A stretch of DNA of 64,000 bases from Thermoanaerobaculia bacterium. GTDB taxonomy: Bacteria; Acidobacteriota; Thermoanaerobaculia; Gp7-AA8. Position numbers and translations under genes: made by a program. The stretch is taken from contig DASWOB010000096.1 of the NCBI GenBank assembly GCA_036398925.1, positions 67,285-131,284 on the forward strand, in the 5' to 3' direction. The notes below the pieces were generated by a model. It did no database searches and was not told where the DNA came from. It saw only the letters and a program-made list of their open reading frames with translations. Positions 12,582 through 47,253 of this stretch are shown here, piece after piece; position 1 is the stretch's first letter; each line of letters begins with the position of its first letter.

Positions 12582-14228
12582 TCAGCGCCCGCGCCGCACG
12601 ACCACCCGCTCCGCCTCGTAGGTCTGGATCGCGGAGACCGCCCGGCGCCGCAGCAGCTCGTCGGAGAACGCATCGGTCAGGATGCGCCCGTCCATGTCGC
12701 GGCCGATCGGCAGTCCGGCCGCGAACAGCACCGTCGGCACGACGTCGGCCACGTAGGCGGCGGTCGGGTTCGGACGGTGCGTCACCCCCGGCCCCGCCAC
12801 CAGCATGAAGCCGTCGTCCGCCCCCGGATCGTCGCGCGTCAGCACCTGCATGGCCCGCGCGTAGGCGGTGGTCGGCAGCCGCGGCGGCGCAACGGCGGAG
12901 GGGGAGCAGATCACCAGCACATGCTCCGGATGCTGCCGCGCCAGCTCCGCCAGCATGCGGTCGAGCTGCTGCGCATAGGCGCGCATCGCCTCGCCGTTGC
13001 GCTCCTCCTTCGGCGGCAGCTCGTTCGAGAAGATGTGCAGCGCGCGCTGCGCCTCCGAGAAGCCTTCGATCCAGACCACCCGCAGGTCGAACGTCTCTCG
13101 CGAAGCGATCAGCCCCACCGCCGCCCGGTCGCGCGCCAGCGCCGCCAGGACGCGGCCGCGCGCCGCACCGGTGCGCTGAAAGCGCTGCGCGACGTCACCG
13201 ACCGTGGCGATGTTCACCGGCCGGCTGCGCAACTGATCGTCCGTGATCACCCGCGTCGCGCCGGTGGTGCGCGACGACGGCCAGCCGACCACCGACGCGC
13301 GCAGCTGCAGCCGCGCGAAGATCTCCCACAGCGGCAACGCATCGCCGGCGGGGAGTGGCGCCGAGATCCGCTCCACCGGCGGGATCAGCCCCCATGCCCG
13401 GAAGCCGACCCCGCTCGGCAGCAGCAGGAACGGCTCCTCGGCATTGAGCGGCGTGCGATACGAAAAGCGCCCCGTCACCCCGTGGCGGTACGGCAGCTTG
13501 CCGGTGGCCAGCGACGCCCACAACGACTTCGGGCTGGTGGTGGGGAACGGCTCGAGCCGCGTGAACCACGAGCGCCGCGTCTCCCCCTCCAGCCACGGCA
13601 GGAGGCCCTCGCCGGCCATGGTCACGATCCAGTCGTACGGCAGGTTGCGGATCGCCACCACCAGCACCGGCCGCTGCCCCGCCACCGCCCCGATGTTCGC
13701 CACCACCACGTTGCGCCGCTCGGTGCGGTAGCTCTCGCGCCGCTGGTAGAGAAAGAACGACGAGACCGCGATCAGCACCACCCCGACGAAAAAGATCGCC
13801 CGCGAGAGGCGGCGGTGCGCGTTGCGCTCGATCACCCACAGCGCCAGCAGCACGAAAGCCGTCACCGCGATGACGTTGGTCGCCTTCGACAGGACCCGCA
13901 CCGCGCCGATCGGCAGGTAGATCCGCACCACCTGCAGGTGGATCCAGTAGATGGCCGAGGCGGTGAAGGCGGCGAAGACCACGAAGCCGAAGCCGTGCGT
14001 GCGGTAAAGGTCCGGCCGTCCGAACAGCCGCACCCGCAGCGCGCGCAGTCCCCACAGCGCCGAGCCGAAGAGGAAGCCGCAGATCAGGCCGTAGATGATC
14101 GTGACGATGGCCAGCCGCCCCGGCGTGATCTCCACCTGCGGATTCAGAAAGTACAGCAGGTGCGTCATGTAGAGGCCGAAGATGGCCCCGGCCAGCACAC
14201 GTTTGAGGTAAGCCCAGCGGATCGGCAT
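12582..14228 (-). CDS. Membrane-anchored alkaline-phosphatase-superfamily protein (sulfatase/phosphotransferase-like)
   Basis: 548 aa; ~5 N-terminal TM helices then AP-core-like domain; subfamily not resolvable by eye. Confidence 0.6.
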   Translation of the reverse strand: MPIRWAYLKRVLAGAIFGLYMTHLLYFLNPQVEITPGRLAIVTIIYGLICGFLFGSALWGLRALRVRLFGRPDLYRTHGFGFVVFAAFTASAIYWIHLQVVRIYLPIGAVRVLSKATNVIAVTAFVLLALWVIERNAHRRLSRAIFFVGVVLIAVSSFFLYQRRESYRTERRNVVVANIGAVAGQRPVLVVAIRNLPYDWIVTMAGEGLLPWLEGETRRSWFTRLEPFPTTSPKSLWASLATGKLPYRHGVTGRFSYRTPLNAEEPFLLLPSGVGFRAWGLIPPVERISAPLPAGDALPLWEIFARLQLRASVVGWPSSRTTGATRVITDDQLRSRPVNIATVGDVAQRFQRTGAARGRVLAALARDRAAVGLIASRETFDLRVVWIEGFSEAQRALHIFSNELPPKEERNGEAMRAYAQQLDRMLAELARQHPEHVLVICSPSAVAPPRLPTTAYARAMQVLTRDDPGADDGFMLVAGPGVTHRPNPTAAYVADVVPTVLFAAGLPIGRDMDGRILTDAFSDELLRRRAVSAIQTYEAERVVVRRGR

Positions 14229-14245: not shown

Positions 14246-17200
14246 ATGCTGAGCCCCTCCGATCTCCACGGCGCGGACGCTCTCTCCCTCCTCCGCCTCC
14301 TCGGCTATCCGGTCGCCCCGGTCGACGTCGACGCCGAAGAATGGCGCCGCGGCGGCGTTCAGATTCCCTTCGCCGAGGGGACGCATGGCGACACCCGCTT
14401 CCAGCTGGCCGTACGCCTGCGCGCGTTCGACCTCTTCGTTCTCACTGGGAACGTACACGAAAAAGATATCTCTCAATTCTTACGGGATTACAATCAATAC
14501 AATCAAGCCACAAAATCGGTACTGATTCATCAGTCACCATCAATCAACAATAATCAGGTCGGTAATCAATCACACGAACCGTCACACAAACCGCTCGCGC
14601 TTTATGATCTCGCCGGCCGCACGCTGCGCCGTCTCGACGTCGATCTCGCTCGTCCCACGCCGCACTCCCTCGGCCGTCTCAATCTCCTCACCGCCGGCCC
14701 CGAGAGCGAGCTCCCCCGCATCTTCGACCGCGCCCTCGATCGCGAGAGCGTCGGCCGCCAGTTCTTCCTCCGCTTCCGCCAGGCGGTCTACGACGTCGCC
14801 GCCTCGCTGCGCGCCGCCTTCCCCGACGAGCCGAAGGAAGCCGTCGACGGCGAAGCGCTGCTGATCCTCTCCCGCCTCCTCTTCCTCTCCTTCGTCCAGG
14901 AGAAAGGATGGCTGAACGGCGAGCGCCGCTTCCTCGCCGACCGCCTCGCGCACGAGGTCCGCCGCGGCCGGGAGTGGTTCTCCGGCGTCCTCCTGCCGCT
15001 CTTCTTCGGCTGCCTCAACACGCCGCTGCACGAGCGCACCCTCGCCGCCCGCAGGCTCGGCCGCATCCCGTACCTCAACGGCGGCCTCTTCGAGCCGTCC
15101 CCCTTCGAGCGCCGTCATCGCGAGCTCCACCTGCCGAACGAGCTGATGCAGCGGGTGGTCGAAGAGCTCTTCGAAAAGTTCGATTTCTGCATCGACGAGA
15201 CCGGCGACGCGGAGAGTGCCGCCGCCGGCACCCGCGTCGACCCGGAGATGCTCGGCAAGGTCTTCGAGTCGCTGATGGCCGGCGGCGAGCGCGCCGCCAG
15301 CGGCAGCTTCTACACCCCCCGCGAGATCGTCGACACCCTCACCGAAAAAGCAATCGTGCACTGGCTGGGGGAGGGGGAGCCGGAGCAGCTCGCCGCCCGC
15401 CTCGAGACCATCACCCTCCTCGACCCCGCCTGCGGCTCCGGCGCCTTCCTCCTCTCCGCCCTCGGCGTCATCGAGCGCCTGCACCGCCGGCTCACCGGCC
15501 AGGCCCCGCCCGGCCTACGCCGGCGGATCATCGAGCGCTCCCTCTACGGCGTCGACCTCGAGCCGCGGGCGGTGCGCCTCTGCGAGCTGCGGCTCTGGCT
15601 GGCCATCGTCGCCAGCACCCCTCCCGCCATCGACGTAGCCATCGAAGAGGTGCCGCCCCTGCCCAACCTCGACCGCAACATCATGCAGGGCAACTCCCTC
15701 CTCGCCCCCACCGACTTTCTCGGCGACGGCCGCGCCGACGTCTACCGCGACTGGCTCTACGCCCTCCGCACCCAGCAGGACCTCCTCGAGCGCTACCGCA
15801 CCGCCTCCCACGCCCAGCGCCCCCTCATCGCCCGCATCCTCCGCGGCAACGACCAGCGCCTCGCCTCCGAGCTCCTGGCCAAATCCATCGACGCCGCCGA
15901 ACAGGAGCTCGCCCGGCGCACCACTCCGCGGCACGACCTCTTCGGCCGCGTCGTCCCCGCGGATGCCGAAGCGTGCCGCGCCCTCCAGGAGCGCATCGCC
16001 GGGCTGCAGCGCAAGCTCGACCGCGTCGAAGACGGCTCGCTCGACTTCTTCTCCTTCGACGTCCACTTTGCGCCCGTGATGGCCGCGGGTGGTTTCGACA
16101 TCGTGGCCGGCAACCCGCCGTGGGTGCGCAATAGCCGCATCGACGCGAGCACCAAGGCGATGCTGGCCGACCGCTACACCCTCTTCCGCCCCAGCGCCTC
16201 CGGCGCCGCCTTCCACCAGCCCGACCTCTCCGTCACCTTCTTCGAGCGCGCCCTGCAGCTGGCCGCCCCCGGCGGCGTGGTGGCCCTGCTCATGCCCTCC
16301 AAGATCCTCGGCAGCGCCTACGCCGCCCCGCTGCGCCGCCTCGCCGCCGAGCGCACCACCATCCTCTCCATCGACGACTGGAGCGACGACCCCCGCCGCC
16401 GCGCCTGGTTCGACGCCGACACCTTCCCCCTCGGCATCCTCTGCGCGAACGGCCGCGAACGCGGTTCGGTCGCCGTGAGCGCCGGCGGCCCGGTGGCGGT
16501 GAGCGCCGGGGGACAGGCCTTCACTTTGCCGCAAGCGTCGCTGCGCGAGTCCGGCGAATGGTCGCTCCTCCCCGCCGATGTCGCCCGGATCCTCTCCCGC
16601 CTCCGCCGCCAGCACCCACCGCTCGCCGAGGTGCTCGGCCGCAAGCCCTTCATGGGCGTCAAGACCGGCGACAACCGCAACTTCTTTCTGGACGTCGAAG
16701 AGCTCCGCGGCGACACCGTTCGTCTCCGTGACGGCCTCGAGCTCCCCCTCACCGCCGTCTGCCGCTGCGTCCGAGGGCGCGACGTCCGGCGCTGGAGCAG
16801 CGGCGGCTCGCACTGGATGCTCTGGCCGCCGCGTGGACGAGGTGGAAAAGAGGCGGCCGGATGGCCGTCGCCCCCCCACTGGCTGCGCCAGTTCGCCACG
16901 ATGCGACGGATCGACCCCCGCGCCGTCCGCCTCTCCTTCGTCCGCCCCGAGCACGTCGGCATCAAGGTCGCGTGGAAAGACCTCTCCCGAGGGATGGCCG
17001 CCACGGTCCTCCCCGACCAGGTCACCATCGGCGCGCACAGCGTCCCCCTCGTCCCCAACCAGACCCTCTACGCCCTCGACGCCGTCTCGATGGAGGAGGC
17101 CTACGTCCTGACCGCGCTACTCAACTCCGCCGTGGTCGACGCCCTCCTCCTCGCCGTCGGCGACCGCGCCAAAGACGCCCACTTTCGCTACTTCGGCCGC

Positions 17201-17389
17201 ACCGTCGCGAAGGTCCCCTTCGTCCGCGGCGAAGAAGCGGCGCTGCTGCGTCTCGCCCGCCGCGCCCATCAAGGCAGCGACGTGCAGGACGAGATCGATG
17301 CGCTCGTTGGCCGGTTGTATGGCTTGGCCGAGGGCGAGCTCGCGACGTTGAAGTCCTTCATCGCCTGGAGGCTCCGTGACCCTCGCTGA
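14246..17389 (+). CDS. MmeI/PglX-like type IIG-architecture N6-adenine DNA methyltransferase with C-terminal target-recognition domain; N-terminal degenerate PD-ExK-like motif
   Basis: 1047 aa; motifs GSFYTPREIV (X), LLDPACGSGAFLL (I), DIVAGNPPW (IV), helical-domain motifs SRLLFLSFVQEKGWL and PYLNGGLFEP, TRD motif FMGVKTGDNRNFFLD; N-terminal FDLFVLTGNVHEK. Confidence 0.85.
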   Translation: MLSPSDLHGADALSLLRLLGYPVAPVDVDAEEWRRGGVQIPFAEGTHGDTRFQLAVRLRAFDLFVLTGNVHEKDISQFLRDYNQYNQATKSVLIHQSPSINNNQVGNQSHEPSHKPLALYDLAGRTLRRLDVDLARPTPHSLGRLNLLTAGPESELPRIFDRALDRESVGRQFFLRFRQAVYDVAASLRAAFPDEPKEAVDGEALLILSRLLFLSFVQEKGWLNGERRFLADRLAHEVRRGREWFSGVLLPLFFGCLNTPLHERTLAARRLGRIPYLNGGLFEPSPFERRHRELHLPNELMQRVVEELFEKFDFCIDETGDAESAAAGTRVDPEMLGKVFESLMAGGERAASGSFYTPREIVDTLTEKAIVHWLGEGEPEQLAARLETITLLDPACGSGAFLLSALGVIERLHRRLTGQAPPGLRRRIIERSLYGVDLEPRAVRLCELRLWLAIVASTPPAIDVAIEEVPPLPNLDRNIMQGNSLLAPTDFLGDGRADVYRDWLYALRTQQDLLERYRTASHAQRPLIARILRGNDQRLASELLAKSIDAAEQELARRTTPRHDLFGRVVPADAEACRALQERIAGLQRKLDRVEDGSLDFFSFDVHFAPVMAAGGFDIVAGNPPWVRNSRIDASTKAMLADRYTLFRPSASGAAFHQPDLSVTFFERALQLAAPGGVVALLMPSKILGSAYAAPLRRLAAERTTILSIDDWSDDPRRRAWFDADTFPLGILCANGRERGSVAVSAGGPVAVSAGGQAFTLPQASLRESGEWSLLPADVARILSRLRRQHPPLAEVLGRKPFMGVKTGDNRNFFLDVEELRGDTVRLRDGLELPLTAVCRCVRGRDVRRWSSGGSHWMLWPPRGRGGKEAAGWPSPPHWLRQFATMRRIDPRAVRLSFVRPEHVGIKVAWKDLSRGMAATVLPDQVTIGAHSVPLVPNQTLYALDAVSMEEAYVLTALLNSAVVDALLLAVGDRAKDAHFRYFGRTVAKVPFVRGEEAALLRLARRAHQGSDVQDEIDALVGRLYGLAEGELATLKSFIAWRLRDPR

Positions 17390-18995
17390 GCATCAACGCG
17401 AAGCGGTCGCACGCGCCGAAGCGACGCTCGCCGCACGCGGCGGAGTGATCCTGGCGGACGAGGTCGGCCTCGGCAAGTCGTTCGTCGCCGCGGAGCTGAT
17501 GCGCCGCGCACAGCATGCCGAGCTGGTCATCCCCAATGCACTCGTCTCGCAGTGGCGCGAAACGCTGGCCACGTTCCACGTCGAGGCCGAGCTCTTCACG
17601 CACGACCGCATCCCGCCGGAGTGCAGCGCGCGCCCAAGGCTCATGGTGGTCGACGAAGCGCACGCCTTCCGCAACCCGAAGACCCGCCGCTACGCCGCGC
17701 TCGCGCAACGGAGCGTCGGAGCCCGCCTGCTCCTCGTCACCGCCACGCCGATCTGCAACAGCGTCGCGGACCTCGAAGCGCTGGTGCGGCTCTTCGCGCG
17801 GGATGACCTTCTGGCGGACCTCGGTGTGCCGTCGCTCGACGTCGCCTTCGCCACGGGAGATGCCGAAGCACTCGCCATCATCGTCAACGCCCTGGTGATT
17901 CGAAGAGATCGCAGCGTGCTGACGGACGACCTCCGCTTCGGCGAGCTCGAACGCCGCGTAGTCCGCCACCCGATCTTCACCGCCGCCGGTGAGGTCGCCC
18001 GGCTGATCGATGTGCTGCAGTTTCCGCTCGTCGGCGACCACGTCATTCTTCGCCGTTTCCTCTGGCGCCGGCTCGAATCGAGCGAAGCGGCGCTCCTCGA
18101 ATCGCTCCGCCGCCAGCTGCGGTTCTATGAGCGCGCGCGGCACTGCATCGCCAGTGGACGCACGCTGCCGAAACGCGATTACCGCCGCGCCTTCGGTCAT
18201 GAGGAAGATCGCGATGTCTTCCAGCAGGTGCTCTTCTGGGAGATGTTCGCGCCGGCGGGTGAGGCCGATCCGCACGCGATCGATGAAGAGGTGGCACGCC
18301 TCGAAGCGCTGGTCGCCTGCATCGCGCTCTCACCACGTACGAAGGTGAACCAGTTGATGGAGCTCGTGAGAGAGGAACGCGAGCCGATGCTGATCTTCAC
18401 CGGCGCGGCCGCCACCGCGTTCGAGCTGTACGACGCGCTCCGCGAGATCCGCAGATGCGGCGTCGTCACCGCGCGCGAGCGCTCCCGCGACGCCGTGCTC
18501 GACGCCTTCCAGCGCGGGCGCATCGACGTGCTCATCTCCACCGACCTCGCCGCGGAAGGGCTCAACCTCCAGCGCGCGGGCGTGGTCGTGCATTACGACA
18601 TCCCTTGGAATCCGGTGAAGCTCGACCAGCGCAACGGCCGCGCGCATCGCATCGGCCAGACCCGCGACTCCGTCCGCGCGATCTACTTTCTACCGGGGGG
18701 CTCCGAGACCCGGATCGTCGAGACGATCGCCAAGAAGAACCGGGTGCGGCGGCGGGTTCTGCAAAGCGGCATCGCTGCTGCCGCGGCTCGAAATCAGCGC
18801 ACCCTGCGGCCGCGCATTGCAGGCGATGCAGCCATCCTGGCCTTTGCGGATGCGGCGCGGCGCGCCGGCCTCACGTTGCCGGAGTCGCTCTACCGGCGTC
18901 ATCGCGCCGGCGGCGAGCTCCTGCTGCGGACCATGGCGGCGGAGAGACTCGATGCGAGGAGGGTCGCGGACGTGGCGGCGCTGCTCTCTCGATGA
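17376..18995 (+). CDS. SNF2-family (SF2) helicase/ATPase, compact 539 aa
   Basis: Motif I ADEVGLGKS, II VVDEAHAFRN, III LLVTATPICNS, helicase C-terminal DVLISTDLAAEGLNLQ, HRIGQTR; 14-bp overlap with MTase gene. Confidence 0.9.
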   Translation: MTLAEHQREAVARAEATLAARGGVILADEVGLGKSFVAAELMRRAQHAELVIPNALVSQWRETLATFHVEAELFTHDRIPPECSARPRLMVVDEAHAFRNPKTRRYAALAQRSVGARLLLVTATPICNSVADLEALVRLFARDDLLADLGVPSLDVAFATGDAEALAIIVNALVIRRDRSVLTDDLRFGELERRVVRHPIFTAAGEVARLIDVLQFPLVGDHVILRRFLWRRLESSEAALLESLRRQLRFYERARHCIASGRTLPKRDYRRAFGHEEDRDVFQQVLFWEMFAPAGEADPHAIDEEVARLEALVACIALSPRTKVNQLMELVREEREPMLIFTGAAATAFELYDALREIRRCGVVTARERSRDAVLDAFQRGRIDVLISTDLAAEGLNLQRAGVVVHYDIPWNPVKLDQRNGRAHRIGQTRDSVRAIYFLPGGSETRIVETIAKKNRVRRRVLQSGIAAAAARNQRTLRPRIAGDAAILAFADAARRAGLTLPESLYRRHRAGGELLLRTMAAERLDARRVADVAALLSR

Positions 18996-18999: not shown

Positions 19000-20240
19000 C
19001 ACCCCGTCAGGCCGGCTTTCGGGGAGCGGGCGTCCCGCCGCATTGGCGCTAACTTTCCTTGGTGCTACCGTAACTTCATGAAACCACGTGTGGATGTGGA
19101 TGAGCGGGAGTGGGTTCAGTTTCAGTGGCCGTATCTGCTAGCGCTGCTCGGGGGAGAGGGGAAGGTCAACGAGCTGGCGTACCGGACGGGGGCGTTCGTT
19201 CGCAGGCGCGAGGTGCACTCGCCAGCGGACCTGTTGCAGATGTTGATGATCTGGGCCGTGGCCGGGCGGTCGCTGCGCGAGACGGTGGCGCTCGCGTCGG
19301 AAGCTGGTCTGGCGGAGCTGAGCGATGTGGCGCTCCTGAAGCGTTTGAAACGAGCCGGCCCGTGGTTCGGCGCAATGCTCGGAGTGATGTTGACAGAGCG
19401 GCGGACCGTGCTGCCTGAAGGTGTCCGCATCCGGGTGATTGATGCCACGGCCATCGCGCGTATTGGACATCGCGGTACGGATCTTCGCGTGCACCTGGGG
19501 ATGGATCTTGGATTGAATTGCATCGACGCGATCGAGGTCACCGATGGTCGCGGCTCGGAGAGCCTGGACCGGTTCACCTTCCTGCCGGGTGAGATCGTGC
19601 TCGCTGATCGAGGCTACGCGCACCGCAAGCCGCTGGCGCGTCTGAGCGAAACTGGAGCGAATTTCATCGTCCGGCTGCCGTGGGCATCGGTTCCATTGAA
19701 AGATCTCGAGGGCAAGCCGTTCGATCTCTTTGCGGCGCTGCGCAGTCTGCCGGACGCCCGTGCCGGCTCATTTCTCGTGCAGTTCGAGGTCTCGAAGACG
19801 AGCCGCGTCGCGTGTCGAGTAGTGGCGATTCGGAAGAGTGAGGCTACTGCGGAGCGGTCACGCCAGCGTGCCATCGCCGAGAGTCGCCGTCACGGCACGG
19901 CGATCGATCCTCGTACTCTCGAAGCAGCAGGCTACTTCTACGTAAATCACCAATTTGACGGATGAGTATTCAGCAGCACAGGTGCTCGAGCTGTATCGGC
20001 TGCGCTGGCAGATCGAGATGAAATTCAAGAACCTCAAATCGGTGCTGCATCTCGGCGAAGTACCGGCCCGCAGCCCCGAGCTGTTCAAGGCCTATGTGAT
20101 GGCGAAGCTGCTCGTCGCGTTGGTGATCGAAAACCTGCTGTTGGACGAGTCTTTTTCCCCCTGGGGCTACCCAATCGCGGCGAGACGCCCGGCGCTATCG
20201 GACCCGACCCCGCGACGCGACCTCCGCTGCGCGCTGCTAA
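19000..20240 (+). mobile_element. IS4-like insertion sequence remnant (boundaries approximate, terminal IRs not resolved)
   Basis: Contains frameshifted DDE transposase; sits between helicase stop and convergent GGDEF gene stop. Confidence 0.5.
19078..20200 (+). pseudogene. IS4-family DDE transposase, split by a frameshift near 19955-19965 (two overlapping ORFs)
   Basis: C-terminal Y-2-R-3-E-6-K signature LYRLRWQIEMKFKNLK in second ORF; N-terminal ORF 296 aa ends FYVNHQFDG; second frame runs on without a convincing in-element stop. Confidence 0.75.
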
Positions 20241-21268
20241 CCGTTCCGGAAGAGACGTTCCACGACGTTCCGGTCCGACGAGGGGTATTCGTACACCTCC
20301 GGACCGCGGCCGGGATGCTTGCGCAGCCACTTGTTCTTGTACATGTCGCGGTCGGCGGCGGTCATCAGCTGGACGAGCGTCGGCGCTTCGAGCAGCCGCG
20401 AGGAGGCGATGCCCGCCGAGATGCCGACGCTGAACGTCGTGCCGCCCGCGGACCATTCGATCTCGGCGACGGCGCTGCTGAGGCGCTCGCAGATCCGCTC
20501 GAGCACCGGCACGTCCAGACGCGGCACGGCGATCACGAACTCGTCCCCGCCGAAACGCGCCACCACGTCTTCGACCCGCGTATGCGTGTGCAGCGCCGTC
20601 GCGACGTCGCGCAGCACCTGATCGCCCGTCAGGTGCCCGTACGTGTCGTTCACATGCTTGAAGCCGTCGAGGTCGAGGAGGACGACGTTCACCACCACCC
20701 CCTCGGCCAGCAGCCGTTCGGCCTCCGAGATGAAGAAGCGGCGGTTGAACGCCCCCGTCAGGTCGTCGCGCGTCGCCAGCCCGTACAGATCGCGGATGGC
20801 GAGATCCATCGTCCGCTGCCGCGCCGCCAGCCGCCGGCCGGCCGTCAGCTTGGCGACGATCTCGCGCTCCGAGGAAGTCTTGGTGAGGAAGTCGTCGAAG
20901 CCGGCGTCGAGCGCCGTCAGCTTCGTATCGACGTCTTCCCGGCTGGTGAGCATCACCGCGTACAGCGCCTGGGTGGCTTCGTTCGCTCGGAGGCGCCCCA
21001 CGGTCTCGATGCCGGTCAGGCGCGGCATCTCGTGGTCGATGACCACCATGTCGTAGGTCCCGTGAGCGAGCCGGTCGAGCCCCGCCTGCCCGTCGTCCGC
21101 CGTGTCGACCCAGAAGCCGAGCCGGCGCGTCAGTGCGGCCACGTAGGCGCGGTAGTTCGTGTCGTCGTCCACCAGCAGGATGCGGAGCGGTTCGGCGGCT
21201 TCGTCTTGCCGGCGGTCTGGCGGGTCATTCATGGTCACGGTCTCGTCAGCATGAAACGTTCGCTCCAA
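20237..21268 (-). CDS. Response regulator with receiver + GGDEF diguanylate cyclase domains (PleD-like)
   Basis: LLVDDD receiver, GGDEF motif ARFGGDEF, RxxD I-site. Confidence 0.9.
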   Translation of the reverse strand: MERTFHADETVTMNDPPDRRQDEAAEPLRILLVDDDTNYRAYVAALTRRLGFWVDTADDGQAGLDRLAHGTYDMVVIDHEMPRLTGIETVGRLRANEATQALYAVMLTSREDVDTKLTALDAGFDDFLTKTSSEREIVAKLTAGRRLAARQRTMDLAIRDLYGLATRDDLTGAFNRRFFISEAERLLAEGVVVNVVLLDLDGFKHVNDTYGHLTGDQVLRDVATALHTHTRVEDVVARFGGDEFVIAVPRLDVPVLERICERLSSAVAEIEWSAGGTTFSVGISAGIASSRLLEAPTLVQLMTAADRDMYKNKWLRKHPGRGPEVYEYPSSDRNVVERLFRNG

Positions 21269-21334
21269 ACCGGGCGTGTCGATGTGATGACAGTCACGTC
21301 GAGCAAAGAATCGTCCCCGGGAACGGCCGCTTAT

Positions 21335-21447
21335 GCGATGAACGATGAGCGATGAACGATGAGCGATGAGCGATGAGCGATGAGCGAGGAACCGCTCGCG
21401 CGACGGCCGGGTTCATCGTTCATCTCTCATCGCTCATCTCTCGTCGC
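21335..21447. repeat. Hairpin element, CGATGAR family (copy 2, longest)
   Basis: (gatgaacgatgagc)n left arm, loop ggaaccgctcgcgcgacggccggg, right arm ttcatcgttcatctctcatcgctcatctctcgtcg; in divergent GGDEF/NtrC promoter region. Confidence 0.85.
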
Positions 21448-21512: not shown

Positions 21513-22908
<1,396 letters not shown>

Positions 22909-22922
<14 letters not shown>

Positions 22923-36164: not shown

Positions 36165-39100
36165 TCAATGATCAGGGCGGCCCGGTGACGGGCCGCCTTT
36201 TTGCTGGTCGCGTGGGACGATGCGGATGGCGATCGGATCGCGCTTCTTTGCTTTCCGCTCCGCGAGCTCGCGATACGGCGCGCGGAAGGAGTAGCGGGCC
36301 ACATCGTCGATGTGCTCCTGCAGCCTGCCAACCGGCGCCTCGCCCCGTGCGCTGAGGGCCGCCGCCACGCGATCCCATTCGTCGCGCTCGTCGTGATCGG
36401 CATACGTCGGAGCGAGCAGGTGGACGAACTTCTCGACCTTCAGCGATTCGTGCTCTTTCTTCTTCATCTCGTCGAACACTTCGAGCGAGACGTCGGGCGC
36501 GCCGACCACGATCGCGAGCAGCATCAGCACCGCCTCATAGGGCGCGATGCCGTGGCCCGAAAGGTATTGCGGCAGATCGCCGGGCGCGATGGACGCCCGC
36601 ATGAAGCGGTAGGTGTTGACGAATCGCTTGGCCGTGCGCGGTGAGCGGCTGACCAGCTTCGCGATCGGCGCGCTCTGCATGAAGTCGCGCTCGATCTTCT
36701 GAATCTTCAACTCCTGTGGATTGAGGTCACGTTTCGGCTGGCTGCGTTTGCGCACGCGCGGCACGGCTGTCGTTCGTTCCGGAGTGATCGCGTGAGGATC
36801 GGCCGTGCCTCGGAGCGGGATCTTTTCGGAAGCGCCGTCACTCGCCGCTATGGCGACGTCCTTCGCCACGAGATTGCCGATGTAGCCGGCAGTCGTCTCG
36901 ACGCTGAGCGGCTCAAGCCAGAACGGAACCTGAAAGATCTTCTCCAGGTAGTCGTGCGGTTTCGCGGCGAAGCCCATCACGTCGACTGTCTCCTGCGCGC
37001 CGGTGGTGCGCTCCTGCAGCGCGCGATGCTTCTGGCGCAGCGACTCCGCCACCCAGCGCGCATCGACGCCCACCACCACCACGAAGAGCTTGAACGCGAG
37101 CAGGAGATGAACGGCCTGCAGCACCTCCACCACCCGCTCGGGATGGCAGCGATCGAGGTCGTCGATGTAGAGGACGATCCGGTCGATGCGGAATTCGTTC
37201 GGAATGGGCGACTCGCCCTCCTCCGGCTGCATCAACTCGCTGAGCGTCGAAAAGTCGTTGCGCACCGTGGCCAGCACGCCCAGCAGCCGGCGGTAGTCGT
37301 CGCTTTCCGCGCGCTCGCTGATGAAGCGCGCCAGACGGCGGCCGCGGCTCAACTCGATGAGCTCTTCCTGGGCTTCGGCGACCGCCTTGTCCTTTCGTTC
37401 GAGCTCGGTCTCCGCGGCCTCGACGTTTTTCACCGCGTCGCGGAGGCGCTTGTCGGCCTCGTCGATCTGGCTCTGCCGCTCCCGATCGCGCTCCTGCATC
37501 TTGACGTCAATGGCCTCGCGCGCTCTGTCGATCCTGCTGAAGATCGAACTCACGTGCGCGAGGCGGACGCCGATCCACCCGATGATCGAGGCGATGGGCG
37601 TGAGAATCTGGACGAGCAGAGGATTCAGGTCGAGAGCGAGCGTGTTCAGCGCCTTCACCGCGAAGGGCGTGAGCAGCAGGATGACCAGCAGGCCGAAGAT
37701 CGTCATCGGCCGCCGCATGATCCACGAGCGAATGACCGCGGCGCGTCCGGTCACCGACTGCAGCGATTCCATCGTCCTGCGGATCTCATCCTTGGTCGCG
37801 CTCACTCTGCCGACGCCGAGTTTTCCGAAGAGCGTCTGTAGATCCGCGCGCGTCTGGTCGTCGATCTCCACGAGGTCCCAGACGTCGACGGCCCGCAACC
37901 CGCCGAGGCCCACCGCGCTCGTTTCCGCGAGCTTCTGTTTCGCCTCCAGCGCGTTCGCGGCCTGCGTTCTCGCCACCTCCGCCTTCTGCACTTTCTCCTC
38001 GGCCGCCGCCCGATCGGCCATCCGCTCGTCGATCTGCTTCGCCACCTCGGCCCGGCGCCTGGCGATCTTGTCCTTGTCCTCGCCCGCCAGTTTGAGGTTG
38101 CTGAAGACGTTCTCGACGAGGCTGGCCCAGAGGTTCGACTCCACGTAGTGCCAGGCGTTGAACTCGATCTGCACGATGCGACCGTGGTACGGGCTCTTTT
38201 CGCCCGCATCGGCTGCCTGCGCGCGCCGGGCGCGCTCGTTGACCGCTTCGCGCAGCTTGGCCATGAAGAAGCTCTTGCCCGAGCCCCAGTCGCCGAAGAG
38301 GCCCACCGCCAGCGGCGGCGTGATCGCGTCCGAGGCGATCATCGTGGCGAAGGCCTGCACGTGATCGTCGATCTCGAGCCAGTCCTCGCCGGCGCTCTGT
38401 TCCGCGTCGAAACGGGCGAGGAATGCGGCGTCGGGAAGGCCGAGGAAGCGGCGCCATACCGGGATGAGGTCACCCTCGGTGGGCGGCGCGTTCTGCTGCA
38501 GCCAGTGCAGGTACGCCACGGCGAGGGCATCGGCATCGATGCCCGCCAGGTCCAGAAAATCGCTCGACCCGAAGTCCTCGTGGCGCGCAAGGGCGATGAA
38601 GGCGCCAACCAGATGGCGCGCGGAGATCTCATCGACACGGGTGGCGGTCCGGGCGATCTGTCGCGCGCGTTCGAACACCGCAGTGAGAGGCTGCGTAAAG
38701 CTGTCCACCACGATGGTGTCGCGACCGCGATCGTACGTGCCCATCCACTCGTCGACGGCCTTGCGCCAGCGCTCCTCACCACTGGTTTCGAAGACGTACT
38801 TGCGGAGGAACGAGGGCGCAGTCGGATCCGCGCTCTCTCCATCGACGAGCGCGATGGCCACCGCACTGGTGGTCAGCGGAGGCCAGGCGATGTTGCGCTC
38901 GATGATCATCCTTCCGGCAACGGTCAGGATGAATTGAGCGAGTCCGCTGAAGAGGAACCCCGATTTCTCGGCGCGGATGAGCCCCTCGGCCGGCGATGCC
39001 TCGACCAGCTCCGCCAGACGGCGCGCTGCCTCGTCGCCGTCGAGCCGTGACGCCTCCAGATGATTGTCGACGCCTTCGCTGCGGGTGAGGAGGATCGCCG

Positions 39101-39443
39101 CGGCTACGCCGAGCGCATCGAGCGGACGCGACGGCCACCGCTCGTGGTATGCGTAGAGGGCGCCGCCCGTGAGATCGTTCACGGTAAAGTCAGGCTTCCC
39201 ACCTCGCGACAGCTCCGGTGAGGTGCGCAGGCCGAGATGCGACTCGAACGTCTTGATCTGCAGACCGTTCGTTTCCAGCACCGCGCGCACGAGCGGCTCC
39301 ACCCGCAGCGCGGCGTAGAGCAAGGTCGAGCGCGACACTTCCTCTTTCTTCCTGCGCAGCTTGTGAATCTGCGCCGCGTAATCGAGCAGCCGGTCGAGAT
39401 CGTGGCCCGGCGTGAGTTGCAGATTCTGGACGACAGCGCGCAC
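36165..39443 (-). CDS. KAP-family P-loop NTPase with TM insertion in NTPase domain and N-terminal Clp-N-like repeat region (1092 aa)
   Basis: Start GTG 39443 with GGAGG SD 5 nt upstream (ORF-track start 40022 rejected as it overlaps pyrH). Walker A GLFGDWGSGKSFFMAKL, Walker B LYIDDLDRCHPERV, TM helices FGLLVILLLTPFAV / ILTPIASIIGWIGV between them. N-terminal repeats STLLYAALRVEPLVRAVLETNGL and ISARHLVGAFIALA. Confidence 0.85.
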   Translation of the reverse strand: MRAVVQNLQLTPGHDLDRLLDYAAQIHKLRRKKEEVSRSTLLYAALRVEPLVRAVLETNGLQIKTFESHLGLRTSPELSRGGKPDFTVNDLTGGALYAYHERWPSRPLDALGVAAAILLTRSEGVDNHLEASRLDGDEAARRLAELVEASPAEGLIRAEKSGFLFSGLAQFILTVAGRMIIERNIAWPPLTTSAVAIALVDGESADPTAPSFLRKYVFETSGEERWRKAVDEWMGTYDRGRDTIVVDSFTQPLTAVFERARQIARTATRVDEISARHLVGAFIALARHEDFGSSDFLDLAGIDADALAVAYLHWLQQNAPPTEGDLIPVWRRFLGLPDAAFLARFDAEQSAGEDWLEIDDHVQAFATMIASDAITPPLAVGLFGDWGSGKSFFMAKLREAVNERARRAQAADAGEKSPYHGRIVQIEFNAWHYVESNLWASLVENVFSNLKLAGEDKDKIARRRAEVAKQIDERMADRAAAEEKVQKAEVARTQAANALEAKQKLAETSAVGLGGLRAVDVWDLVEIDDQTRADLQTLFGKLGVGRVSATKDEIRRTMESLQSVTGRAAVIRSWIMRRPMTIFGLLVILLLTPFAVKALNTLALDLNPLLVQILTPIASIIGWIGVRLAHVSSIFSRIDRAREAIDVKMQERDRERQSQIDEADKRLRDAVKNVEAAETELERKDKAVAEAQEELIELSRGRRLARFISERAESDDYRRLLGVLATVRNDFSTLSELMQPEEGESPIPNEFRIDRIVLYIDDLDRCHPERVVEVLQAVHLLLAFKLFVVVVGVDARWVAESLRQKHRALQERTTGAQETVDVMGFAAKPHDYLEKIFQVPFWLEPLSVETTAGYIGNLVAKDVAIAASDGASEKIPLRGTADPHAITPERTTAVPRVRKRSQPKRDLNPQELKIQKIERDFMQSAPIAKLVSRSPRTAKRFVNTYRFMRASIAPGDLPQYLSGHGIAPYEAVLMLLAIVVGAPDVSLEVFDEMKKKEHESLKVEKFVHLLAPTYADHDERDEWDRVAAALSARGEAPVGRLQEHIDDVARYSFRAPYRELAERKAKKRDPIAIRIVPRDQQKGGPSPGRPDH
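36175..36203 (+). terminator. Intrinsic terminator after tsf (gggcggcccg-gtga-cgggccgcc + TTTTT); overlaps 3' end of the antisense KAP gene
   Basis: Hairpin and T-run read directly. Confidence 0.75.
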
Positions 39444-39519
39444 ATCTGCCTCCGGATGAGTTTCGGTTTTCTGGTGTGGGCCGAGTATAGGGCGGTTCTG
39501 TGTGATAAAAAGCGCGCGC

Positions 39520-40239
39520 ATGCCTGACGCGCCCAAATACAAACGCATTCTTCTGAAGTTGTCCGGTGAAGCCCTGATGGGGGGACGCCGTTCCGGGATC
39601 GACGCGGACGTTCTGGCGACGATCGCGGACGAGATCGTGGAAGTGCAGCAGATGGGCGTGCAGATCGCGATCGTCATCGGCGGCGGCAACATCTTCCGCG
39701 GCGTCACCGGCGCGACCCAGGGCATCGACCGGGTGGCCGGCGACCACATGGGCATGCTGGCCACGGTGATCAACGCCCTGGCGTTGCAGGATGCCCTCGA
39801 GCGCCGCAGCATCCCGACGCGCGTGACGACCGCCATCACCATGGCCGAGGTGGCCGAGCCGTTCCTCCGCCGCCGCGCCGTGCGGCATCTCGAAAAGGGA
39901 CGCGTGGTCATCTGCGCGGCCGGCACCGGCAATCCGTTCTTCACCACCGACTCGGCGGCCGCGCTCCGCGCGGCGGAGCTGAAGTGCGACATCATCTTCA
40001 AGGCCACCAAAGTCGACGGCATCTACACGGCCGATCCGGAGAAGGATCCGAACGCCGAGCGCCTGCCGCGCGTCACGTATCAGCGCGTCCTCGCCGATCG
40101 TCTGCAGGTGATGGACGCCGCCGCGATCGACCTCGCCCGCGGCAGCTCGATTCCGATCTATATTTTCTCGCTGCGTGAGAAGGGCAACATCAAGCGAGCC
40201 CTCCTGGGTGAGGATGTCGGCTCGATCGTTTCTGATTAG
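39520..40239 (+). CDS. pyrH: UMP kinase
   Basis: KYKRILLKLSGEAL, VIGGGNIFRG. Confidence 0.95.
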   Translation: MPDAPKYKRILLKLSGEALMGGRRSGIDADVLATIADEIVEVQQMGVQIAIVIGGGNIFRGVTGATQGIDRVAGDHMGMLATVINALALQDALERRSIPTRVTTAITMAEVAEPFLRRRAVRHLEKGRVVICAAGTGNPFFTTDSAAALRAAELKCDIIFKATKVDGIYTADPEKDPNAERLPRVTYQRVLADRLQVMDAAAIDLARGSSIPIYIFSLREKGNIKRALLGEDVGSIVSD

Positions 40240-44420: not shown

Positions 44421-45130
44421 TCGTTTACGGAGCGAACCCTGTCATTGAAGCAATCCGGTCGCATCCGGACAAGATCCGCTACATCGGCATCACTCGCGAC
44501 GGCAGCACGCGCCTGTCGCGCCTGGTGAACGAGGCGAAGAACGCCGGCGTGGCAGTACGGCAGATGACCGCCACGGAAATCGACAAGCTCACCGGGCGCG
44601 GCGTGCACAACGGCGTGATCGCCGAGGTGGCGGACGCCACGTACGCCGACTTCGACGACATGATTGCGCGGGAGTCGACGCAGTTCGTGCTCATCCTCGA
44701 CGGGGTCACCGATCCGCAGAACCTCGGCGCGATCCTGCGCGTGGCCGATGCGTTCGCTGTCGACCTGGTGGTGCTGCCGCAGCATGAAAGCGTCGGCCTT
44801 ACCGCCGTTGCCGTCAAAGCCTCGGCCGGCGCATCCGAATGGGTGCCGGTCACCCAGGTGACGAACCTCGCCCGCGCTATCGAGACGCTGAAGGAGGCGG
44901 GCTACTGGACGTACGCCGCGGCCGGCGATGGCGACGCGCCGCTGAAGGTCGACTTCCGCGGCAAGGTCGCGCTGGTGCTCGGCAACGAAGGGAAGGGGAT
45001 CCGCCGCAACGTGCTCGAGCATTGCGATCGGGTCATCACCATCCCGATGTTCGGCCACGTCGAATCGCTGAACGTCGCCACCGCTGCGGCGATTCTCTGC
45101 TACGAAGTGGCGCGGCAGACCCGGCCATGA
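44417..45130 (+). CDS. rlmB: SpoU/TrmH-family RNA 2'-O-methyltransferase (RlmB-like)
   Basis: LDGVTDPQNLGAILRVADAF, LVLGNEGKGIR, SLNVATAAAI motifs. Confidence 0.85.
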   Translation: MIVYGANPVIEAIRSHPDKIRYIGITRDGSTRLSRLVNEAKNAGVAVRQMTATEIDKLTGRGVHNGVIAEVADATYADFDDMIARESTQFVLILDGVTDPQNLGAILRVADAFAVDLVVLPQHESVGLTAVAVKASAGASEWVPVTQVTNLARAIETLKEAGYWTYAAAGDGDAPLKVDFRGKVALVLGNEGKGIRRNVLEHCDRVITIPMFGHVESLNVATAAAILCYEVARQTRP

Positions 45131-45855
45131 GAATGGACCTCTTCGTCCGCGGCGTGGCGCTGCGGCGCGAGCAGGTGCCGTCGTTCGAGGTCCATCCGTT
45201 CAACGTGCCGGTCATCCGCGCGCTCGAGGAGATCGAGTTCGACCGGCAGGTGACGTTCCTCATCGGCGAGAACGGCTCCGGCAAGTCGACGCTCATCGAG
45301 GCGATCGCCGTGGCCAGCGGCTTCAACGCCGAGGGGGGCTCGAAGAACTTCCAGTTCGAGACGCATGCCTCGACCTCCGAGCTGCATCGCCACCTCTTCA
45401 TCACCCGGGGGCCGCGTCGGCCGACGGACGGCTTCTTTCTGCGGGCGGAGAGCTTCTTCAACGTCGCCAGCGAGATCGACCGGCTGGACGTGAAGGCGTG
45501 GTACGGCGGCAGGTCGCTGCACGAGATGTCGCACGGCGAATCGTTCTTCACGCTGCTCAACGAGCGGCTCATCGGCGGCGGCCTCTACATCTTCGACGAG
45601 CCGGAGGCGGCGCTTTCCCCGACCCGGCAGATGGCCATGCTCACGCGGATGCACGAGCTGGTGCTCGACGCCTCGCAGCTCATCATCGCCACGCACTCGC
45701 CGATCCTCATGGCGTACCCGAACGCCGCCATCTATGAGATCGCGGACGGCGAGATCCGGCGGGTGGAGTACGAGGAGACGGAGCACTACCGCATCACGCG
45801 GCAGTTCTTCACCCATCGCGAGCGGATGCTGCGCGTTCTGCTCGGCGGTGACTGA
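45127..45855 (+). CDS. Small ABC-type (AAA_21/SMC-like) ATPase, 242 aa
   Basis: Walker A GENGSGKST, Walker B LYIFDEPEAALSP, H-loop IIATHSP; ATGA overlap with rlmB. Confidence 0.8.
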   Translation: MRMDLFVRGVALRREQVPSFEVHPFNVPVIRALEEIEFDRQVTFLIGENGSGKSTLIEAIAVASGFNAEGGSKNFQFETHASTSELHRHLFITRGPRRPTDGFFLRAESFFNVASEIDRLDVKAWYGGRSLHEMSHGESFFTLLNERLIGGGLYIFDEPEAALSPTRQMAMLTRMHELVLDASQLIIATHSPILMAYPNAAIYEIADGEIRRVEYEETEHYRITRQFFTHRERMLRVLLGGD

Positions 45856-45918
45856 GAAGGTGCCGATGTCCTGAGTTGAGGACGCTCGGCCAGGGTTGAG
45901 TCCGTCGGTAGCATAGTC

Positions 45919-46275
45919 GACGCGATTGATTGCACCGGCGATGTCATCGATTGCATCCGCGATGCGATCGATTGCATCGGCGATGTCATCGATTGCATGC
46001 GCGATGCGATCGATTGCATCCGCGATGTCATCGATTGCATGCGCGATGCGATCGATTGCATCCGCGATGTCATCGATTGCACCGGCGATGCGATCGATTG
46101 CATCGGCGATGTCATCGATTGCACCCGCGATGCGATCGATTGCACCGGCGATGCGATCGATTGCACCCGCGATGTCATCGATTGCACCGGCGATGCGATC
46201 GATTGCACCCGCGACGTCATCGATTGCATCGGCGATGCGACCGATTGCATCGGCGAAGAGATCGATCGCTTCGGC
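45919..46275. repeat. Tandem array of ~17 x 21-bp units (alternating GATGTCATCGATTGCA / GATGCGATCGATTGCA cores; 42-bp higher-order period); all six frames open
   Basis: Read directly; units contain ATCGAT palindrome core; minus frame would encode (AIDRIAG/AIDDIAD)n heptads. Confidence 0.9.
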
Positions 46276-46477
46276 CATCCCATCGGCGGGGTCATGGCTC
46301 AGGCGTGACGCACCTCCCTCGCGGGCGCGAACACGCTCCAATTCCCGGAATAGGTTCCGCTTGCGTGCCGTTTGGCACTCTGCTATAACCCGCAGTTCTT
46401 CGGCCGCCGCTCGTGCGTGGAGCCATCCAACGACGCAGTGCAGAAGGCTGTTGTGTCTTTGAAATGAAGGAATTGGC

Positions 46478-46553
46478 GCTGGCATAGCTCAGTTGGTAGA
46501 GCAGCTGATTTGTAATCAGCAGGTCGCGGGTTCGAGTCCCGTCGCCAGCTCCA
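46478..46553 (+). tRNA. tRNA-Thr (anticodon UGU)
   Basis: Cloverleaf: TAGCTCAGTTGGTAGAGCA D-arm, anticodon loop tTTGTAa, GGTTCGAGTCC T-arm, encoded CCA. Confidence 0.9.
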
Positions 46554-46575
46554 GAAGCAACGGGAGTCTCAGCGT

Positions 46576-46662
46576 GGAGAGATGGCTGAGCGGCTAAAAG
46601 CAGCAGACTGTAAATCTGCCGGTCCATGACCTACGGAGGTTCGAATCCTCCTCTCTCCACCA
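46576..46662 (+). tRNA. tRNA-Tyr (anticodon GUA), long variable arm
   Basis: GGAGAGA...TCTCTCC acceptor, loop ctGTAaa, GGTTCGAATCC. Confidence 0.9.
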
Positions 46663-46670
46663 CTAGAAAC

Positions 46671-46760
46671 AGCTCTTGGCTGTTGGCTCTTAGCTCTTAG
46701 GGAAGGCCGTCGCGCGAGGCCGTCGTTCTCCTAAGAGCTAACAGCTAAGAGCCAACAGCT
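46671..46760. repeat. Hairpin element (AGCTCTT/GGCTGTT units) between tRNA-Tyr and tRNA-Gly
   Basis: agctcttggctgttggctcttagctcttaggg - loop with cgcgcg - ctaagagctaacagctaagagccaacagct. Confidence 0.85.
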
Positions 46761-46763
46761 CGT

Positions 46764-46838
46764 GCGGGAGTAACTCAGGGGTAGAGTCACAGCCTTCCAA
46801 GCTGTTGGTCGCGGGTTCGAATCCCGTCTCCCGCTCCA
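46764..46838 (+). tRNA. tRNA-Gly (anticodon UCC)
   Basis: Loop cTTCCAa, GGTTCGAATCC T-arm. Confidence 0.9.
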
Positions 46839-46854
46839 AAAGCCGGAAATCAGT

Positions 46855-46930: not shown

Positions 46931-46956
46931 TTACTAAAGTCAGGCGGAATCAGTCA

Positions 46957-47177: not shown

Positions 47178-47253
<76 letters not shown>

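Follow-up and report, generated by a model that had tools for sequence, protein, structure and literature searches.

Sets of a DNA methyltransferase (MTase) and an ATP-driven motor are usually read as mobile immune systems. In type III and type ISP restriction enzymes (EcoP15I Mod/Res; LlaGI, LlaBIII), an MTase bearing a target recognition domain (TRD) gives a superfamily 2 (SF2) motor its site specificity, the site being asymmetric and methylated on one strand. MmeI combines its MTase with an N-terminal PD-ExK endonuclease of the motif D-x9-E-x-K. Other DNA MTases, such as Dam and CcrM, are lineage-conserved orphans. In eukaryotes, C5-cytosine methylation can depend on SNF2 ATPases, as seen for Dnmt5, a fusion of SNF2 and MTase, and for DDM1/LSH. 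In class 1 DISARM, the core of DrmA (helicase), DrmB (DUF1998) and DrmC (phospholipase D, PLD) is preceded by DrmD and DrmMI (10.1101/2021.12.28.474362). Hma consists of the SNF2 helicase HmaA with an essential C-terminal PD-(D/E)xK nickase, the methylase HmaB and the ATPase HmaC (PMC11232893). MANTIS (Gao_RL) comprises the DUF499 AAA+ protein MtsA, the DUF3870 protein MtsB, the MTase MtsC and the PLD-SF2 protein MtsD, and its ATPase can be required for loading of the PglX-like MTase (preprint 10.64898/2026.09.23.753747). Here we analyze a gene pair encoding an N6-adenine MTase and a compact SNF2 ATPase. It lies in a 64,000-nucleotide stretch (the window) of a Thermoanaerobaculia bacterium (Acidobacteriota; assembly GCA_036398925.1, contig DASWOB010000096.1, positions 67,285 to 131,284). 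The pair behaves like core genes: it is vertically inherited at one chromosomal spot in a large clade of soil Acidobacteriota. In the searchable literature we found neither a description of this pair nor one of methylation in Thermoanaerobaculia.

A methyltransferase gene overlapping a SNF2 ATPase gene

According to the listing of open reading frames (ORFs) and their translation, the MTase of 1047 amino acids (aa) has an ATG start and the SNF2 ATPase of 539 aa a GTG start (Table 1). The MTase stop codon sits 14 nt within the SNF2 ORF, downstream of a GGAGG Shine-Dalgarno sequence. An overlap of the MTase stop and the SNF2 start, mostly of 8, 11 or 23 nt, is seen in ~70 of 78 homologous loci. 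This arrangement favors coordinated production of the two proteins and probably an MTase-SNF2 complex. A first-pass annotation of this DNA had proposed the translational coupling and had identified the genes as an MmeI/PglX-like DNA MTase for N6-methyladenine (m6A), with its own TRD, and a compact SNF2 ATPase. Its ORFs and every motif it quoted are present in the translations, and Pfam profile searches agree with both identities, returning Eco57I/N6_Mtase for the MTase and SNF2-rel_dom/Helicase_C for the helicase.

The catalytic domain of the MTase contains motif X (GSFYTPREIV, aa 353-362), motif I (LLDPACGSGAFLL, aa 391-403) and motif IV (DIVAGNPPW, aa 618-626). The distance of ~220 aa between motifs I and IV is explained by a helical, Arg-rich insertion: the MTase model has long helices at aa 497-595, positions 2-166 of the Pfam Eco57I profile stretch over aa 432-713, and the PADLOC DrmMI profiles cover part of the insertion. 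The preceding helical domain, with the motifs SRLLFLSFVQEKGWL (aa 209-223) and PYLNGGLFEP (aa 275-284), is where the protein is best conserved. A further motif, FMGVKTGDNRNFFLD (aa 802-816), is found in the C-terminal region.

Profile and structure searches place the MTase among DNA-modifying enzymes of this architecture. Pfam detects Eco57I (6e-21), N6_Mtase, MmeI_Mtase and, weakly, MmeI_hel, and PADLOC ranks REase_MTase_IIG first (1e-34), followed by DrmMI (8e-27) and PglX. A profile of 53 MTase homologues used against the PDB matches CamA best (6e-15), then MmeI (3e-8), BsaXI and PglX/BrxX; the MmeI chain 5hr4 aligns at profile positions 187-429, which cover the helical domain plus the beginning of the MTase domain. 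The AlphaFold model (predicted local distance difference test score, pLDDT, 75.5) has BrxX/PglX, CamA, BseCI, MmeI (1.6e-11), BpuSI and TaqI as its top Foldseek matches. By analogy with these relatives, the MTase would modify a single strand of a short, asymmetric target.

D393-L403 in motif I and G622-W626 (GNPPW) are invariant in the 53 homologues, as are K806, T807, G808, N810, R843-D846, K907-D912, N938-T940 and K976-Y982 in the TRD. The TRD is about as conserved as the catalytic core, which fits a stable specificity. The entropy profile shows variable stretches at aa 735-775, 816-835 and 925-933. The window MTase has some lineage-specific insertions. An AEGT insertion (aa 43-46) is absent from nearly all homologues, as are a low-complexity QSPSINNNQVGNQSHEPSHK segment (aa 96-115, pLDDT <50) and a tandem duplication VAVSAGG(P) (aa ~741-757).

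In the N-terminal domain, the first-pass annotation had seen a motif resembling D-x9-ExK and had considered cleavage doubtful. The doubt was justified, while the motif itself is not conserved. The window MTase has D62-x9-E72-K73 in the segment FDLFVLTGNVHEK (aa 61-73), without the residue that separates Glu and Lys in MmeI. Among 120 MTase homologues, D62 is invariant, E72 is Glu in 85, and position 73 is Lys in 4. Structure prediction had been suggested as a way of detecting a nuclease fold; a separate model of aa 1-168 (pLDDT 89) gave no Foldseek match below E 0.017 and no nuclease match above noise. A PDB sequence search with the domain gave no match. Homology links it to the N-terminal domain of relatives from Gemmatimonadota (hhalign 96.4%, E 1e-9), in which the acidic and basic residues E32, D62 and K90, invariant in the clade, are not kept. 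The PD-ExK endonuclease of type IIL/IIG enzymes was not found in the MTase. A PD-(D/E)xK or Mrr domain, as in type III and type ISP enzymes, was found in neither the MTase nor the SNF2 protein by Pfam, PADLOC and the modelled structure of the MTase N-terminus.

The SNF2 protein carries the motifs ADEVGLGKS, VVDEAHAF, VTATP and QRNGRAHRIGQ. Across 120 homologue clusters, motifs I, II, III, V and VI (GLGKS, DEAH, TATP, V, QRNGRxxRIGQ) are invariant or nearly so. The protein has neither an N-terminal PLD nuclease domain nor a large C-terminal extension, with ~100 aa following motif VI. PADLOC matches it to DrmD, BrxH and DpdE; its HmaA match is confined to aa 366-430 and comprises helicase-C motifs only.

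Relatives of the SNF2 protein form a series with respect to the PLD domain. The nearest annotated relatives of both genes are the operons of Deinococcus pRadio5 and Nostoc pn2, plasmid relatives (29% identity) in which an MTase is accompanied by helicases of 1082-1097 aa with an N-terminal, intact PLDc_2 domain containing HxK. The Gemmatimonadota helicases (1080-1241 aa) retain the scaffold of the PLD domain and have lost HxK and GSxN. Other relatives have helicases without a PLD domain, of 932 aa, of 739 aa, or split into 384 and 391 aa. The window protein begins exactly at the motor start of the PLD-SNF2 relatives, and Pfam gives no PLDc match in it. The comparison, which is unrooted, suggests a progressive nuclease loss from an intact PLD on plasmids through a degenerate one in Gemmatimonadota to none here.

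The plasmid operons (L086 7833-17256, Deinococcus radiophilus pRadio5; L087 7227-15875, Nostoc pn2) consist of the MTase, one to three small genes and the PLD-SNF2 helicase. The small genes are GmrSD_N/DUF262, RelA_SpoT-like or unknowns. These operons resemble MANTIS effectors without the DUF499 ATPase and may constitute a distinct type of restriction-like system.

NCBIfam curated models with cut-offs were used for system assignment. The MTase scores 55 bits with BREX-1 PglX (cut-off 500) and 42-55 bits with the BREX_1, 2, 5 and 6 MTaseX models (cut-offs 400-900), and is not identified as PglX. The SNF2 protein reaches 121 bits with DrmD (cut-off 610), 114 bits with DpdE (500) and 68 bits with RapA (576), and Pfam finds only generic SNF2, Helicase_C and ResIII domains. 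Since these scores are far below the cut-offs, the proteins belong to the broad MmeI/PglX/DrmMI MTase and SNF2 superfamilies and to none of the named systems. Partner genes of BREX, DISARM, Hma and MANTIS were found in none of >150 homologous loci from at least three phyla, in keeping with the earlier observation that BREX and DISARM partners are missing. No gene for BrxC or PglZ was found in the 10 kb flanking the pair on each side, whether in the window or in relatives, nor among the other large window genes that were checked, and DrmA, DrmB and DrmC were found neither in the window locus nor in any relative. Of the MANTIS features, DUF499 MtsA, DUF3870 MtsB and PLD-SF2 MtsD do not adjoin the pair, and the helicase has no PLDc. 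The Hma features, a C-terminal nuclease on the SNF2 protein and a third gene (HmaC), were also not found.

Inheritance, distribution and surroundings of the pair

Both genes have >120 full-length homologue clusters each (61-82% identity), with both genes on the same contigs, and all named sources of these clusters are Thermoanaerobaculia or Acidobacteriota metagenome-assembled genomes (MAGs). When one genome per GTDB species was scanned, 140 had a relative, the best 80 of which, 46-72% identical to the query, were analyzed. The SNF2 gene follows the MTase gene in all 80 wherever the contig reaches, and a divergent gene, AP548 (Table 1), lies upstream of the MTase gene wherever the upstream sequence suffices. 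An upstream block of genes for an amidohydrolase, SLT, NAD kinase, an AAA ATPase and a ComEA-like HHH protein is found in all sufficiently long loci. A downstream block (sigma54 activator, DUF192, rhomboid, QueD/PTPS, DUF1802, DnaJ) is absent in about one third of loci, largely distant ones (52-56% identity), and is kept in several equally distant ones.

The pair shares its history with these neighbors. In Mantel tests on pairwise distances (all p = 0.001), the MTase correlates with SNF2 at r = 0.93 and with AP548 at 0.90. Four of six flanking housekeeping genes reach r of 0.82-0.89 with the MTase (NAD kinase 0.89, rhomboid 0.85, sigma54 activator 0.84, DnaJ 0.82); PTPS and the AAA ATPase give 0.61 and 0.60. 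Among themselves, the housekeeping genes correlate at 0.45-0.80.

As an independent sample of prevalence, 80 metagenome loci were fetched via AP548 and not via the MTase. Where 400 nt or more of upstream sequence is available, the MTase is present in 74 of 76 loci, and SNF2 in 51 of the 52 with at least 3.4 kb. The single clear exception is L161 (metagenome contig Ga0247679_1000200, 1-6000), in which TPR, HTH_3 and thermolysin M4 genes replace the pair and AP548, GspH and HHH are retained. Disrupted copies of the pair were not seen in 78 loci, and both genes are intact and under purifying selection. Vertical inheritance, synteny and the lack of a cognate nuclease, the features expected of an orphan MTase, are all observed. 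In one relative (L005 14685-16178), a gene for a 497-aa protein with a MutS_V domain overlaps the end of the SNF2 gene and precedes the sigma54 activator gene; it was rejected as a component of the system, as it has no PADLOC match and is absent from L003 and the window.

Beyond the clade, an exhaustive search found ~30 representative MTase clusters at 45% identity or more. A large sister group outside these clusters is 34-43% identical over MTase aa 120-1040. The nearest outgroup is a family from Gemmatimonadota (Longimicrobiales) with many full-length homologues at 47-56% identity. The SNF2 gene directly follows the MTase gene, often overlapping it, in four Gemmatimonadota loci, a Myxococcales MAG and one further lineage. 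The neighborhoods in these lineages are of the housekeeping type, without other defence genes, and three of the four Gemmatimonadota loci share upstream synteny. AP548 is unlinked to the pair outside Thermoanaerobaculia. Since SNF2 always directly follows the MTase in these lineages, the two-gene cassette is the unit conserved across phyla, and the idea of an autonomous two-gene unit put forward at first pass has held up: the pair is the conserved state everywhere examined. A viral collection of 2.9 million contigs contains a single close match (L174), which is the same chromosomal synteny block; other viral matches do not exceed 30% identity. In the Myxococcales locus (L173 5563-6792), a sigma54 activator gene lies directly upstream of the MTase gene and echoes the downstream one in Thermoanaerobaculia. 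The adjacency may be a coincidence or a regulatory link.

Table 1 Features of the gene pair and its immediate neighbors in the window.
Feature	Position	Strand	Description and basis
AP548, upstream divergent gene	12582-14228	-	548 aa; weak Pfam Phosphodiest (alkaline-phosphatase superfamily)
Gap between AP548 and MTase start codons	14229-14245		17 nt
MTase	14246-17389	+	gamma-class N6-adenine MTase, MmeI/PglX/DrmMI-like architecture; Pfam, PADLOC, Foldseek
N-terminal domain, aa 1-165	14246-14740	+	family-specific, without recognized fold or conserved nuclease motif
Helical domain, aa ~166-330	14741-15235	+	holds FVQEKGWL and PYLNGGLFEP; weak Pfam MmeI_hel and DUF7814, aa 208-291
Catalytic MTase domain, aa ~331-735	15236-16450	+	motif X, motif I, NPPW; Pfam Eco57I
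Motif I	15422-15451	+	MTase catalytic domain
Helical Arg-rich insertion, ~145 aa, aa ~455-600	15608-16045	+	between motifs I and IV
NPPW	16112-16123	+	MTase catalytic domain
TaqI-like TRD and C-terminal helices, aa ~760-1047	16523-17386	+	invariant residues, entropy profile, TaqI/CamA structural matches
Translational-coupling junction	17367-17389	+	GGAGG Shine-Dalgarno 17367-17371, GTG 17376, TGA 17387-17389; sequence reading
Compact SNF2 ATPase, 539 aa	17376-18995	+	motor only; Pfam SNF2-rel_dom, Helicase_C, ResIII
Candidate 15-nt inverted repeats of the IS4 element	19027-19041, 20177-20191
GGDEF response regulator	20237-21268	-	beyond the IS4 element
sigma54 activator	21513-22922	+	beyond the GGDEF gene

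The short gap between the divergent start codons of AP548 and the MTase gene measures ~12-26 nt in many relatives, and the promoters of both genes must each lie inside the coding sequence of the neighbor. A promoter and terminator scan gave matches at chance level only, and the MTase promoter was not located. AP548 is a membrane protein with ~5 N-terminal hydrophobic segments and an LtaS/EptA-like layout. It was tried as an analogue of PglZ and rejected: it has no PglZ or PADLOC match and is unlinked to the pair in Gemmatimonadota, Myxococcales and L172. It is regarded as a syntenic neighbor only, in line with its description at first pass as membrane-anchored, on the opposite strand and unlikely to be PglZ.

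An insertion sequence (IS) with an IS4-family transposase lies 3' of the SNF2 gene, its DDE domain split over two frames near 19955, as the first reading of a frameshifted transposase directly after the helicase had it. Together with the GGDEF gene it forms a ~2.6-kb segment (19027-21268) that separates the SNF2 gene from the sigma54 activator gene in the window. As the activator gene lies within 150 nt of the SNF2 gene end in many relatives, this segment is a lineage-specific insertion, and the picture of an orphan module ending in an IS does not hold. The IS is absent in relatives. A long ORF at 19955-21355 (+) runs largely antisense to the GGDEF gene and is likely to be spurious. Between the GGDEF gene (-) and the sigma54 activator gene (+), an intergenic array of GCGATGA heptamers is followed by inverted TCATCGC heptamers (21335-21447; arms of 37 nt, 86% complementary).

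The GC content at third codon positions (GC3) of the MTase (0.89) and SNF2 (0.84) genes is native to this chromosome, with values of 0.80-0.95 for neighboring genes. Other window genes were chosen by GC3 and then checked with Pfam. The window is core chromosome, with rpsB, tsf, gltX, pyrD, folD and rpoB confirmed by Pfam, and gene sizes and order suggest a nusG-rplKAJL-rpoBC layout. No defence-island or phage genes were found around the pair, in the window locus and 10 kb to either side or among the other large window genes checked.

Further along, a 1285-aa KAP-family P-loop NTPase (36165-40022, -; Pfam 7.5e-30) is encoded between tsf and other housekeeping genes. It shows weak similarity to QatA, the Qat anti-phage ATPase (94 bits against a cut-off of 600). 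The region 44839-48000 codes for a 338-aa ATPase of the OLD/Abi type (AAA_21/AAA_15) that weakly matches PtuA. The lowest-GC stretch of the window (0.586-0.616) follows this gene, just upstream of the nusG-rplKAJL-rpoBC-like genes. The ATPase region may be a small foreign islet.

Possible roles of the pair

We propose that the pair is a domesticated, nuclease-free chromosomal module, its SNF2 motor assisting or gating the methylation of specific sites on the host chromosome to m6A. We give this reading a probability of about one half. The module would descend from restriction-like systems of an MTase and a PLD-nuclease-SNF2 protein by loss of the nuclease. Its fixation in the chromosome would have taken place in the large Thermoanaerobaculia clade, with parallel events in lineages that include Gemmatimonadota. 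The MTase and the SNF2 protein would be produced together, probably as a complex. As a minimal ATPase translocating on double-stranded DNA, the SNF2 protein may load, move or activate the MTase on chromosomal DNA in an ATP-driven manner. The product would be a clade-conserved m6A mark read by the host itself, in gene regulation, in discrimination during replication or repair, or as a permanent self-mark, and would not serve cleavage-based restriction.

Several points weigh against this proposal. The role of the m6A mark is one that we infer entirely, and the polarity of PLD loss would rest on an unrooted comparison. BREX demonstrates that MTase-containing systems can exclude phage without a recognized nuclease, so the absence of a nuclease here is compatible with immunity. 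The nuclease searches covered the pair and its loci, and a nuclease could be encoded elsewhere in the genome. Post-segregational 'addiction' could stabilize a restriction-like pair. L161, which has no pair, indicates that the pair is dispensable or relocatable. Variation of the TRD at aa 816-835 and 925-933 means that the specificity may not be identical throughout the clade, and all genomes compared are MAGs.

If the motor is needed for methylation, the pair would offer a simple two-protein bacterial system for studying ATP-dependent DNA methylation coupled to SNF2, which to our knowledge is otherwise known mainly from eukaryotes (Dnmt5, DDM1/LSH). More tentatively, and as a bolder claim that we consider possible rather than probable, the pair may represent in bacteria what SNF2-coupled DNA methylation is in eukaryotes. 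A restriction-like MTase/PLD-SNF2 system would then have been domesticated in the Acidobacteriota clade and, independently, in Gemmatimonadota and some Myxococcota. The nuclease-free product would require its motor to load or activate the m6A MTase and would leave a lineage-conserved mark that is read for regulation, replication or repair. The series of relatives, with the PLD intact on plasmids, dead in Gemmatimonadota and missing here, suggests a stepwise path from defence to epigenetic domestication, if this unrooted series is read in that direction. Judging from the profile matches, such loci may be called type IIG restriction-modification (RM) or partial DISARM by pipelines for defence annotation. 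Such calls would overstate the defence repertoire of MAGs from soil Acidobacteriota and Gemmatimonadota.

As the main alternative, the pair could be an immune system that has become fixed in the chromosome, with the MTase marking self and the MTase-SNF2 complex blocking unmethylated invading DNA. The block could occur without cleavage, as in BREX or DISARM, by motor-driven eviction or stalling of replication. It could also use a cryptic nuclease in the manner of a split type ISP or type III-like enzyme, residing in the MTase N-terminal domain or in a protein encoded elsewhere. We rate this explanation at well below even odds. Components of defence systems make up all of the closest profile matches (REase_MTase_IIG, DrmMI, DrmD, BrxH, DpdE), and the distant plasmid relatives adjoin PLD-SNF2 nucleases, GmrSD-like genes and toxin-antitoxin genes. 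The MTase N-terminal domain has acidic and basic residues that are invariant in the clade, and the strict conservation of the ATPase motifs indicates that the motor matters. However, clade-wide synteny and co-phylogeny with the host are atypical of defence genes, which as a rule are patchily distributed and spread horizontally. The pair is not surrounded by a defence island, one lineage (L161) does without the pair, and the TRD is conserved like the catalytic core and not diversified. No nuclease signature was found, and the PLD is degenerate or lost in the chromosomal lineages. The term 'restriction-like', used for the pair in the first-pass annotation, is not supported by the searches for a nuclease, and a cleavage-based mechanism is likewise without support.

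A housekeeping role unrelated to DNA methylation is very unlikely. In this case the SNF2 protein would recycle RNA polymerase like RapA, and the MTase would be either inactive or a modifier of RNA or protein. The core-genome position near transcription genes and the weak RapA match would fit, and in JGI some homologues are labelled 'methylase of polypeptide subunit release factors'. The RapA score is, however, far below its cut-off, and the N- and C-terminal domains of RapA were not found by Pfam. The MTase has a full DNA-MTase architecture (NPPW, TaqI-like TRD, MmeI/PglX helical domain), and its structural neighbors are all DNA MTases bound to DNA. A RapA-type gene conserved at this position without the MTase had been named at first pass as an observation that would speak against a defence or anti-restriction module; such conservation of position was indeed observed, for MTase and helicase together and not for the helicase alone.

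The pair could also be the decayed remnant of a BREX type 3 system (PglXI and BrxHII), as initially hypothesized, or of class 1 DISARM (DrmMI and DrmD), the rest having been deleted, perhaps in connection with the IS. This explanation is highly improbable and already contradicted. DrmMI, DrmD, PglX and BrxH are weak best matches in PADLOC and NCBIfam, and the IS lies directly downstream. Yet BrxC, PglZ, BrxA, DrmA, DrmB and DrmC occur in none of the >150 loci, which carry the pair only, so that the two-gene state is itself conserved. The PglX and DrmD scores are a fraction of their cut-offs, both genes are intact and under purifying selection, and the IS is missing from relatives. Finally, a split DarB-like function in anti-restriction was also raised initially and would here belong to a phage or another mobile element. 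The combined MTase and helicase functions and the adjoining IS would fit, but this explanation can be practically dismissed, as it is contradicted by the chromosomal, syntenic and vertically inherited context without phage genes and by the only close viral-collection match (L174) being the same chromosomal locus.

Comparison with known systems

The closest architectural likeness of the MTase is to type IIL/IIG enzymes (MmeI, BpuSI) and PglX/BrxX. All combine a gamma-class N6-adenine MTase with NPPW, a helical spacer and a C-terminal TaqI-like TRD in one chain, and each of these elements was found in the window MTase. As for differences, it has no conserved PD-ExK motif, and its N-terminal domain is unrelated by sequence and fold. 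The helical insertion of ~145 aa, the obligate SNF2 neighbor, the absence of BrxC and PglZ and the vertical inheritance are further differences.

DISARM shares the combination of an N6-adenine MTase (DrmMI) with a SNF2-like helicase (DrmD), and DrmD is the best PADLOC and NCBIfam match of the helicase. Here, however, DrmA, DrmB and DrmC are missing and the helicase is about half as long as DrmD. MANTIS and the plasmid operons of pRadio5 and Nostoc pn2 likewise pair a PglX-type MTase with an SF2/SNF2 ATPase. These have an active HKD/PLD effector nuclease and further genes (DUF499 AAA+, DUF3870 or DUF262/GmrSD), whereas the PLD is missing here and, outside Thermoanaerobaculia, the pair has no further conserved companion gene. 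MtsC also uses DPPY, while the window MTase has NPPW. Hma combines a SNF2 helicase with a methylase, and the window helicase matches HmaA in part, but it is without the nickase domain and the third ATPase gene.

The logic of a TRD-bearing MTase and an SF2 motor is that of type III and type ISP enzymes, and their genetic coupling is seen here as overlapping ORFs. Type III Res and type ISP proteins carry PD-(D/E)xK or Mrr domains; in the pair none was detected, the motor is of the SNF2 type, and the genes are not mobile.

In its inheritance, the MTase resembles orphan enzymes. CamA of C. difficile, its best PDB sequence match and one of its top structural matches, is also vertically inherited, conserved in its lineage and without a nuclease. 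Compared with CamA, Dam and CcrM, the window MTase has additional N-terminal and helical domains, and we know of no clade-conserved orphan MTase of this kind that is coupled to a dedicated SNF2 ATPase. Such coupling brings to mind Dnmt5 and DDM1/LSH, in which DNA MTase activity is linked to a SNF2 ATPase in a housekeeping epigenetic role, and the module may work likewise. The modified base differs, being N6-adenine here and C5-cytosine there, and the coupling is not demonstrably homologous. Within the modules of an MTase and an SF2 motor (RM, BREX, DISARM, MANTIS), the pair is set apart by vertical inheritance at the level of class or phylum, by its minimal SNF2 motor and by the lack of a nuclease.

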